DNA of 22,672 bases, from the NCBI RefSeq assembly GCF_003334815.1, contig NZ_QOWO01000051.1. The stretch is one strand, 5' to 3'. The position numbers are program-made. Shown piece by piece: positions 18,001-21,000 of this stretch. The DNA comes from Escherichia coli (GTDB lineage: Bacteria; Pseudomonadota; Gammaproteobacteria; Enterobacterales; Enterobacteriaceae). Each line of letters starts with the position of its first letter. Within the stretch, counting starts at the first letter, position 1.

Positions 18001-21000
18001 ACCAGCGGCGCTAACATGATAAAGGCCACTTCATAGAACATCGCCAGACCAAAAATCAGGCCGATGATAATCACCGACAGCTGTACATAGCGCAGACCGA
18101 GACGCGCCAGCAGCGTATGCGCTATCTGGTGAGCCGCGCCGGAGTCGACCATCAATTTACCGATGACCGCACCGAACACCACGATGATAGCCAGTTCCCC
18201 CAGCGTGTTGCCGAAGCCCGCTTTCATAGTGTGCAGCAGCGACATCAAATCCATGCCCGCCAGCATCCCGACGGACAGCGCCGCCACCAACAAAGCCACC
18301 ATTGAATTGATTTTGAACTTCAAATTCAGTACCAGCATCAGGCCAATGCCGAATACCACCCAGAGAATGTTAAGCACATGCATAACGTTTTACCTTACCT
18401 GGTTGAACCGTTGTTATTTTGGGCGACATGTTATGTAAATTGGTCAACCATTGTTGCGATGAATGTCACATCCTCTGATCAATAACCATCGATTACCCTT
18501 TGCTGCAATTTGCAGCAACAACCATGAGAGTGAAATTCTTGTGATGTGGTTAACCAATTTCAGAATTCGGGTTGACATGTCTTACCAAAAGGTAGAACTT
18601 ATACGCCATCTCATCCGATGCAACGCCACGGCTGCGGTCTGGTTGTTCATCCGGATACCTAAACAACTCCAGGGTTCCGCGTCTCTTTGCTGTGGAACCC
18701 ACTATGTGAAAGAGGAAAAATCATGGAACAGACCTGGCGCTGGTACGGCCCAAACGATCCGGTTTCTTTAGCTGATGTCCGTCAGGCGGGCGCAACTGGC
18801 GTGGTTACCGCGCTGCACCATATCCCGAACGGCGAAGTATGGTCCGTAGAAGAGATCCTCAAACGCAAGGCGATCGTTGAAGACGCAGGCCTGGTGTGGT
18901 CTGTCGTAGAAAGCGTACCAATTCACGAAGATATCAAAACCCACACTGGCAACTATGAGCAGTGGATCGCTAACTATCAGCAGACTCTGCGCAACCTGGC
19001 GCAGTGCGGCATTCGCACCGTGTGCTACAACTTCATGCCGGTGCTCGACTGGACCCGTACTGACCTCGAATACGTGCTGCCAGACGGCTCCAAAGCGCTG
19101 CGCTTCGACCAGATCGAATTCGCTGCATTCGAAATGCATATCCTGAAACGTCTAGGCGCGGAAGCGGATTACACCGAAGAAGAAATTGCTCAGGCTGCTG
19201 TTCGCTTCGCCACTATGAGCGACGAAGACAAAGCGCGTCTGACCCGTAACATCATTGCTGGTCTTCCGGGCGCGGAAGAAGGCTACACCCTCGACCAGTT
19301 CCGTAAACACCTGGAGCTGTACAAAGATATCGACAAAGCGAAGCTGCGCGAAAACTTTGCCGTCTTCCTGAAAGCGATTATTCCAGTTGCTGAAGAAGTC
19401 GGCGTGCGTATGGCTGTTCACCCGGACGATCCGCCGCGCCCGATCCTCGGCCTGCCGCGCATTGTTTCCACCATTGAAGATATGCAGTGGATGGTTGATA
19501 CCGTAAACAGCATGGCAAACGGTTTTACCATGTGCACCGGTTCCTACGGCGTGCGTGCTGACAACGATCTGGTTGATATGATCAAGCAGTTCGGTCCGCG
19601 TATTTACTTCACCCATCTGCGCTCCACCATGCGTGAAGATAACCCGAAAACCTTCCACGAAGCGGCGCACCTGAACGGTGACGTTGATATGTACGAAGTG
19701 GTGAAAGCGATTGTTGAAGAAGAACACCGTCGTAAAGCGGAAGGCAAAGAAGACCTGATCCCGATGCGTCCGGACCACGGTCATCAGATGCTGGACGACC
19801 TGAAGAAGAAAACCAACCCAGGTTACTCCGCAATTGGTCGTCTGAAAGGCCTGGCCGAAGTTCGCGGTGTCGAACTGGCGATCCAGCGCGCTTTCTTTAG
19901 CCGTTAATATCCACCGGCATGGCTGCGCGCCGTGCCGGTTCCTTCTTCCTTGCCGTCACTCTTTGAAGACGGATTCTGGAGTTTACGATGACTACTATTG
20001 TTGACAGCAATCTGCCGGTTGCCCGCCCGTCATGGGATCATTCTCGTCTGGAATCACGCATTGTGCATCTCGGTTGCGGGGCGTTTCACCGCGCGCACCA
20101 GGCGCTGTATACCCATCATCTGCTGGAAAGCACCGACAGCGACTGGGGCATCTGCGAAGTTAACCTGATGCCAGGCAACGACCGCGTGCTGATCGAAAAC
20201 CTGAAAAAACAGCAACTGCTGTACACCGTAGCGGAAAAAGGCGCAGAGAGCACCGAGCTGAAAATTATCGGTTCGATGAAAGAAGCGCTGCATCCGGAAA
20301 TCGATGGCTGCGAAGGTATTCTCAACGCGATGGCGCGTCCGCAAACGGCGATTGTCTCTCTAACGGTCACGGAAAAAGGCTACTGCGCTGATGCGGCAAG
20401 CGGTCAACTGGATCTCAATAACCCACTGATCAAGCACGATCTGGAAAACCCGACTGCGCCGAAGTCCGCGATTGGTTACATCGTCGAAGCCTTGCGTCTG
20501 CGTCGTGAAAAAGGGTTGAAAGCGTTTACGGTGATGTCCTGCGATAACGTGCGTGAAAACGGTCATGTGGCGAAGGTCGCGGTACTGGGGCTGGCTCAGG
20601 CGCGTGACCCGCAGCTGGCGGCATGGATTGAAGAAAATGTCACCTTCCCGTGCACCATGGTTGACCGCATCGTTCCGGCGGCGACGCCAGAAACCTTACA
20701 GGAAATTGCTGACCAGCTGGGTGTTTACGACCCGTGCGCCATTGCCTGCGAACCGTTCCGTCAGTGGGTGATTGAAGATAACTTCGTTAATGGTCGCCCG
20801 GACTGGGATAAAGTGGGCGCACAGTTCGTTGCAGACGTTGTGCCGTTCGAAATGATGAAGCTGCGTATGCTGAACGGCAGCCACTCTTTTCTGGCGTACC
20901 TCGGTTACCTCGGCGGCTATGAAACCATTGCCGACACCATGACTAACCCGGCTTATCGCAAAGCGGCCTTTGCCCTGATGATGCAGGAACAAGCGCCAAC

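Follow-up and report, generated by a model that had tools for sequence, protein, structure and literature searches.

A perfect 19-bp palindrome in the linker between paired UxuR/ExuR operators of the Escherichia coli gntP-uxuA control region

The gntP-uxuA locus

The DNA analyzed here, called the window throughout, is a stretch of 22,672 nucleotides from Escherichia coli (RefSeq assembly GCF_003334815.1, contig NZ_QOWO01000051.1) that corresponds as a whole to the fim-gntP-uxuAB-uxuR locus, with fimH upstream and uxuB and uxuR downstream. Since gntP occupies the minus strand up to position 18383 and the ATG of uxuA lies at 18723, the intergenic stretch between the two genes is exactly 18384-18722, a divergent control region of 339 bp whose features are collected in Table 1. 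Of 5,426 complete E. coli genomes, 5,405 contain the 340 bases 18384-18723 at an identity of 90-100%, with the flanks annotated as gntP and uxuA. The gntP-uxuAB pair is a textbook example of divergent promoters that are both doubly repressed, and gut colonization by E. coli is helped by the use of hexuronates and fructuronate.

Table 1. Features of the gntP-uxuA control region and its flanking genes, in coordinates of the window.
Feature	Position	Strand	Sequence	Basis or remark
gntP (fructuronate/gluconate permease)	17040-18383	-		Coding sequence call and annotation
Putative gntP -10 hexamer	18428-18433	-	TAACAT	Sequence reading and geometry relative to the CRP-like site 18455-18470
O1, gntP-proximal UxuR/ExuR operator	18438-18455		AAATTGGTCAACCATTGT (core TGGTCAACCA, 18441-18450)	Motif, conservation
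CRP-like site adjoining O1	18455-18470		TGCGATGAATGTCACA	1 mismatch to TGTGA-N6-TCACA; best match in the window
Perfect 9-1-9 palindrome (19-mer)	18500-18518		TTGCTGCAA-T-TTGCAGCAA	Sequence read, inverted-repeat search
CRP-like site overlapping O2	18540-18555		TGTGATGTGGTTAACC	2 mismatches to TGTGA-N6-TCACA
O2, uxuA-proximal UxuR/ExuR operator	18543-18560		GATGTGGTTAACCAATTT (core TGGTTAACCA, 18547-18556)	Motif, conservation, SELEX region
Putative uxuAB promoter	18572-18600	+	-35 TTGACA (18572-18577), 17-bp spacer, weak -10 GAACTT (18595-18600)	Read from sequence
uxuA (mannonate dehydratase)	18723-19907	+		Coding sequence call and annotation

Paired UxuR/ExuR operators

The TGGTNNACCA motif has three matches in the window against 0.27 expected, two of them in the control region (18441-18450 and 18547-18556) and the third (21494-21503) upstream of uxuR. 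The match at 18547-18556, TGGTTAACCA, had been singled out in the original prediction as a perfect palindrome lying upstream of a TTGACA hexamer and consistent with a UxuR/ExuR operator. The sequence bears out its position, with the hexamer 15 bp downstream, and its identity as an operator was corroborated by a core and right flank that agree with those of a UxuR operator already published, AAATTGGTATACCAATTT (PMC8092373), by its conservation across genera and by a UxuR peak obtained in genomic SELEX, where purified UxuR gave a single genomic peak, the gntP/uxuA spacer, and glucuronate lowered the binding (PMC5934670). The extended O2 sequence matches AAATTGGTATACCAATTT at 13 of 18 positions, and these include all of the TGGT-NN-ACCA core and of the right flank. 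Of the dinucleotide shuffles of the 339-bp region, 28% contain a perfect palindrome of 10 bp, and the significance of TGGTTAACCA comes from its match to the TGGTNNACCA motif and its conservation across genera rather than from its symmetry. It is regarded as probably the core of the already known uxuA-side UxuR/ExuR operator, with UxuR binding supported at the level of the region, and this part of the finding is not new. Binding of UxuR and CRP to the region is taken here from the literature, and our own observations concern sequence features and their pattern of conservation.

The box TGGTCAACCA in O1, at 18441-18450, was missing from the earlier reading, and the extended O1 sequence matches AAATTGGTATACCAATTT at 14 of 18 positions. 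Both boxes are kept upstream of uxuA in Escherichia (including E. albertii), Citrobacter, Enterobacter, Cedecea and Erwinia, and TGGTTAACCA belongs to one half of a conserved O1/O2 pair. The two centers are 106 bp apart in E. coli, about 10 helical turns, and 102-106 bp apart across these five genera, with a linker that varies in sequence. This conserved spacing across a free linker, the most useful by-product of the analysis, argues for cooperative or looped repression, and the 106-bp distance would fit either mode.

CRP-like sites and promoters

Both gntP and uxuA are reported CRP targets with multiple CRP sites in their spacer (PMC3105977), and two CRP-like sites accompany the operators (Table 1). 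In the whole window, matches to the CRP consensus at no more than 2 mismatches number 9 against 10 expected by chance, and the distances given below are counted from predicted transcription starts. The site at 18455-18470, which adjoins O1 and is also kept in Citrobacter, would be a putative class II activator site for gntP if the start lies where the TAACAT hexamer places it. In that case gntP would have a CRP-dependent promoter whose -35 region is covered by O1. The site at 18540-18555, whose TGTGA half is kept in Citrobacter and Enterobacter, would have its center near -60 of the predicted uxuA start, and O2 would lie just upstream of the uxuA -35 hexamer, given the promoter positions read from the sequence. 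A consensus promoter scan misses the putative uxuAB promoter because its -10 hexamer is weak, and the block GGTTGACATGTNNTACCAAAAGG is near-invariant across Escherichia and Citrobacter.

Taken together, this is most likely the already known two-part control region, in which either divergent promoter would be served by a separate UxuR/ExuR operator and by a CRP site next to that operator or overlapping it; fructuronate or glucuronate would relieve the repression and cAMP-CRP would activate transcription.

Form of the 19-bp palindrome

The original prediction also described an 8-1-8 palindrome, TGCTGCAA-T-TTGCAGCA, at 18501-18517. It is present as placed and its extent had been underestimated, since the perfect symmetry is 9-1-9 and runs from 18500 to 18518; it is called the 19-mer in what follows. 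In K-12-type coordinates it falls at about 4,551,414-4,551,432. Each arm of the 19-mer is itself a 4-1-4 palindrome, and TTGC-N-GCAA occurs twice with a 10-bp period. The 19-mer is followed by CAACCATG on one strand and by AGGGTAAT on the other. A consensus scan found no promoter-like or terminator-like site at the 19-mer, an Rfam search gave no family match at E up to 1, and no further copy within 3 mismatches was found elsewhere in the window. The remaining long palindromes of the window resemble terminators.

When the 339-bp region was shuffled with its dinucleotides kept, 0.3% of the shuffles contained a perfect inverted repeat whose arms measure 9 or more and whose loop does not exceed 1. 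About 0.26 such repeats are expected per 22.7-kb window, and the intergenic DNA of E. coli as a whole should, by our own extrapolation, have roughly ten or more by chance. The 19-mer is thus unusual locally, with a dyad symmetry that exceeds chance in the region, but it is only moderately unusual and not extraordinary genome-wide.

The center of the 19-mer (18509) lies 6.05 and 4.05 helical turns from the centers of the two UxuR boxes, in phase with both, an arrangement that about one in five placements would give by chance. It also lies close to the middle of the O1-O2 interval, 10.5 bp off the midpoint, and at about -90 to -100 of both predicted starts, gntP and uxuA, where upstream activator sites or architectural sites are commonly found.

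From this second palindrome the original prediction derived an additional regulator acting on gntP or uxuA. In its fullest form, this proposal takes the 19-mer as the operator of a regulator, either a dimer or a dimer of dimers, which would have arisen in Escherichia or been recruited there. Bound at about -90/-100, the regulator would control gntP and/or uxuAB in the role of upstream activator, anti-activator or loop-assisting factor. The rarity of a perfect 9-1-9 symmetry among the shuffles, the repeated TTGC-N-GCAA sub-symmetry with its 10-bp period and the helical phasing with both UxuR boxes all speak for such an operator, and we nevertheless consider it unlikely for the reasons given in the next two sections.

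A role through DNA structure was weighed as well, in which a small cruciform or a bend at the 19-mer would tune O1-O2 looping or the coupling of the promoters. Negative supercoils build up between divergent promoters, and the 19-mer lies between the two predicted ones, close to the O1-O2 midpoint. Folded as a single strand it gives a hairpin with 8 bp and -8.1 kcal/mol (z = -4.9 relative to shuffles), and any such palindrome would form one. Arms of 9 bp with an effective loop of 3 nt are short for cruciform extrusion in vivo, the symmetry is imperfect in the other Escherichia lineages, and relatives whose operators are equally far apart lack a palindrome between them, so that the paired-operator architecture does not need one. 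A structural role is accordingly judged very improbable. A general need for a palindrome at the center of the loop was rejected, as none is found in other genera.

Search for a binding factor

The 19-mer was compared with the consensus sequences of about 46 known operators, and none of them stood out after multiple testing; absence of a match in such a comparison is weak evidence, and it counts to that extent against a dedicated regulator. The geometries of CytR, Cra, PurR, KdgR, IclR, FNR, LexA and Fur sites do not fit. PutA is an unlikely candidate: its GTTGCA motif resembles the TTGCA cores of the 19-mer, and it was reported to have a single target in genomic SELEX.

The best resemblance was to the NtrC consensus TGCACCA-N3-TGGTGCA, with 10 of the 14 specified bases, a score equaled by 0.7% of random loci in the window. 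On this basis NtrC, or a sigma-54 activator akin to it, might use the 19-mer as a weak enhancer-type site, since NtrC sites share with it a 17-bp dyad of 7-3-7 geometry, an AT-rich center and the matching outer TGC/GCA and inner CA/TG. The resemblance is not significant because about 46 consensus comparisons were made, and the mismatches hit the GCAC/GTGC core of both halves, which the 19-mer lacks. Additionally, a search of 18384-18722 for a sigma-54 promoter (TGGCAC-N5-TTGCA) found none except the CRP site at 3 mismatches, and the nearby published sigma-54 ChIP-seq site lies within fimH, 2.1 kb upstream of the 19-mer. An NtrC-type site is the least credible of the roles considered, less so even than a structural one.

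In the searchable literature (SELEX, ChIP-exo, Reg-Seq and DAP-seq), only UxuR, CRP and the RpoH holoenzyme are named on the gntP/uxuA spacer, despite a genomic SELEX coverage of more than 200 factors, which weighs against a further regulator. A full-text search with the palindrome sequence found no paper containing it. The reported RpoH SELEX peak on this spacer suggested a reading of the 19-mer as part of a sigma-32 promoter. This was rejected, as a sigma-32 promoter across the 19-mer would agree with the sigma-32 consensus at 7 of 14 specified bases, which is the random level, and would lose the CCAT of its putative -10 to a SNP that is common in E. coli (18525 T>G).

Distribution among relatives and sequence constraint

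The comparison set consisted of uxuA loci, one genome per species, together with 120 metagenome contigs anchored on the box-2/promoter block. Within E. coli, 5309 of 5426 complete genomes (about 98%) carry the 19-mer unchanged, once per genome (median 1 place), and an exact-match search of the 5,426 genomes found no second perfect copy, a further point against a dedicated regulator.

Conservation among close relatives, expected of an operator in the original prediction, largely did not hold up: the palindrome is absent in syntenic Citrobacter, degraded in other Escherichia and perfect only in E. coli proper. The four Citrobacter genomes have the same divergent gntP-uxuA arrangement and keep both UxuR boxes, the CRP site at box 1, the TGTGA half-site and GGTTGACATGTNNTACCAAAAGG, and their syntenic regions lack the 19-mer although genes, operators, CRP site, promoter and spacing are the same, which argues against a regulator bound there. 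The roughly 60 bp between these modules in Citrobacter are unrelated to the E. coli sequence and differ even among Citrobacter species. More generally, no notable palindrome was found in the non-Escherichia linkers examined (Citrobacter, Enterobacter, Cedecea and Erwinia). Since the boxes, the first CRP site, the promoter block and the spacing are kept and the linker is not, the part that holds the 19-mer appears free in sequence and not in length.

Four other Escherichia lineages carry altered forms of the 19-mer: the E. albertii type (TTGtTGCAATTTGCAGCAA) has 1 change, the L125 type (TTGCTGtAATTTGCAtCAA) and the L178 type (TTGCTGtAATTTGCAaCAA) have 2 changes each, and the L002/L208 type (TaGtTGtcATTTGCAGCgA) has 5. 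None of these changes is symmetric, compensatory or mirrored in the opposite arm, and such uncompensated alterations at core positions of one arm count against an operator. On the other hand, the single-mismatch E. albertii form is stable in at least 9 E. albertii-type sequences, which counts in favor of one. In the L002 lineage, uxuA is immediately preceded by nanM/nanS-like genes, and fim and gntP are missing; box 1 and its CRP site are kept.

When the lineages that keep gntP are compared, variable columns number 3 of 19 in the palindrome and 23 of 50 in the linker around it (Fisher p = 0.027), and this lower variability is what leaves the additional regulator some probability. In E. albertii alone, 1/19 and 15/50 columns are changed, respectively. 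The excess of conservation is no longer significant when the gntP-less lineage is added (6/19 vs 28/50, p = 0.11), which tells against a regulator; that lineage, which lost fim-gntP, is the only one in which the 19-mer has decayed as fast as the flanks, and a decay that accompanies the absence of gntP in turn favors a regulator. The known functional blocks of the region have 3-10% of their columns variable. The conservation of the 19-mer is thus intermediate and sets it apart from its surroundings, which hints weakly at constraint, in lineages that are not independent. Common E. coli SNPs at 18494, 18498 and 18525 flank the 19-mer and none falls inside, as would be expected by chance at this SNP density; rare singleton variants inside the 19-mer are present in metagenome contigs.

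Origin and possible role of the palindrome

The uxuA tree has the topology (Citrobacter, (albertii, (L002, (L125, (L178, E. coli))))). On this tree the perfect E. coli 19-mer needs a T>C change at arm position 4, common to two sister lineages, and a second T>C toward complementarity, at position 7, which falls on the E. coli branch itself, and other branches shifted away from symmetry; the direction of these changes is read from a five-taxon tree with homoplasy. Templated mutation by template switching, a process known to complete the symmetry of imperfect inverted repeats, may have perfected the 19-mer.

Our preferred reading, with a probability of about 60%, is that the 19-mer is an Escherichia-restricted quasi-palindrome that was perfected on the E. 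coli branch and that serves no dedicated regulator. It sits in a poorly constrained, rapidly evolving linker between two conserved modules and would be neutral. A regulator acting on gntP or uxuA in addition to the known ones is unsupported: the 19-mer has no second perfect copy and no match among the consensus sequences compared, and its conservation among close relatives is largely lacking. It is correspondingly doubtful that TTGCTGCAATTTGCAGCAA is the site of an Escherichia-specific regulator or of a loop-apex factor, a third input to gntP and/or uxuAB that was lost together with gntP in one lineage, and the operator set out above, although its chances are marginally better, remains a minority view as well. 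If the 19-mer did bind a third factor, it would represent a species-specific input to a well-studied regulon; the evidence points in the opposite direction, and the elements of consequence are the known pair of UxuR/ExuR operators and the CRP sites. The probability left after the quasi-palindrome without a dedicated factor and the Escherichia-specific site, which takes a much smaller share, goes to structural or other roles.

Comparison with known systems

The operators of the hexuronate regulon, bound by UxuR and ExuR (GntR family, FadR subfamily), have a TGGT-NN-ACCA core with AT-rich flanks, and both TGGTTAACCA and TGGTCAACCA are like them. The 19-mer is unlike this motif, with a match of 9/18 that is at the random level and with TTGCT...AGCAA halves 9 bp apart instead of 2.

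Quasi-palindromes that act as hotspots of template-switch mutation exist in E. coli. The 19-mer resembles them in that an imperfect Escherichia ancestor would have been perfected at positions 4 and 7, each of which took on the complement of the other arm, and it differs from them in that the other Escherichia lineages moved away from symmetry.

Repression loops are established in the gal system, where OE and OI are 113 bp apart with HU at the apex, and in the lac system, where O1 and O3 are 92 bp apart; for UxuR/ExuR we know of no demonstration of looping elsewhere. In gntP-uxuA the 19-mer would lie near the middle of the loop, in phase with both operators, and unlike gal with its HU, the relatives lack a conserved apex element. 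What the gntP-uxuA region has in common with the gal and lac loops is a pair of like operators, here about 10 turns (106 bp) apart, with an intervening sequence that is free to vary.

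Spacing of the paired UxuR/ExuR boxes

The centres of the two UxuR/ExuR boxes of the gntP/uxuA intergenic region lie 106 bp from each other, or roughly 10 turns of the helix. Across Escherichia, Citrobacter, Enterobacter, Cedecea and Erwinia (the window together with loci L003–L012 and L041) the box-to-box distance stays within 102–106 bp, even though the linker sequence between the boxes is unrelated among these genera. The constancy of this distance over an unrelated linker suggests that the divergent gntP and uxuA promoters are subject to cooperative or looped repression.

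Features of the window discussed in this section (coordinates in nt)
Feature	Coordinates	Sequence	Location
Perfect palindrome 15-3-15	2469-2501
Perfect palindrome 10-1-10	7256-7276
Sigma-54 site IS53	16384-16400	CTGGCTCATTAATTGCC	inside fimH
Perfect palindrome 12-1-12	17007-17031		between convergent ends of fimH and gntP
Leader element	18400-18410	TGGTTGAACCG	inferred gntP leader
UxuR/ExuR box	18441-18450		gntP side of the spacer
UxuR/ExuR box	18547-18556		uxuA side of the spacer
Extra leader stretch	about 18620-18695	repeated segments CATCCGATG / CATCCGGAT	uxuA 5' leader
Third UxuR-type box	21494-21503	TTTGGTTGACCAGTTT	upstream of uxuR
REP-element-like sequence	21590-21626	GCCGGATAAGGCGTTCACGCCGCATCCGGC	between third UxuR-type box and uxuR start

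Lineages with an altered gntP

One lineage of Escherichia (L002, positions 1-3000; also L208), which carries the label E. coli strain SCPM-O-B-8794, is devoid of both the entire fim cluster and gntP and harbors nanM/nanS-like genes immediately upstream of uxuA; the junction lies ~17 bp from the expected position of the gntP ATG, and the gntP-side UxuR box and the CRP site are still present. In E. coli strain FDAARGOS_1297 (L083, NZ_CP070148.1) gntP is truncated or replaced ~58 nt into its coding sequence and is annotated as an incomplete pseudogene; the intergenic region is intact, as is the palindrome in the linker (a perfect 9-1-9 inverted repeat).

Other elements of the locus

The long perfect 12-1-12, 10-1-10 and 15-3-15 repeats are most likely terminators and explain why the window is richer in palindromes than its shuffles: with arms of at least 9 nt and loops no longer than 1 nt, three are observed compared to 0.26 expected.

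The spacer itself contains a genomic SELEX peak of RpoH holoenzyme RNA polymerase with an intensity of 5.0 (PMC5493296). The surroundings of the palindrome yielded no convincing sigma-32 promoter. The intragenic site IS53, known from sigma-54 ChIP-seq (PMC4591121), points towards gntP and uxuA.

Upstream of uxuR, GCCGGATAAGGCGTTCACGCCGCATCCGGC looks like a REP element judging by its sequence. The literature gives the uxuR promoter as the source of the operator AAATTGGTATACCAATTT, an exact sequence that is absent from the window even when 3 mismatches are allowed.

Regarding the leaders, that of uxuA in Escherichia contains ~55–80 nt absent from the Citrobacter leaders, and the extra stretch is highly conserved in E. 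coli and variable in E. albertii. The gntP-leader element is conserved across genera and may constitute a further operator-like element; its counterpart in other Escherichia lineages and in Citrobacter, TGGTTGAACCA, is a dyad of the GntR/FadR type with a centre of 3 nt instead of 2 nt.
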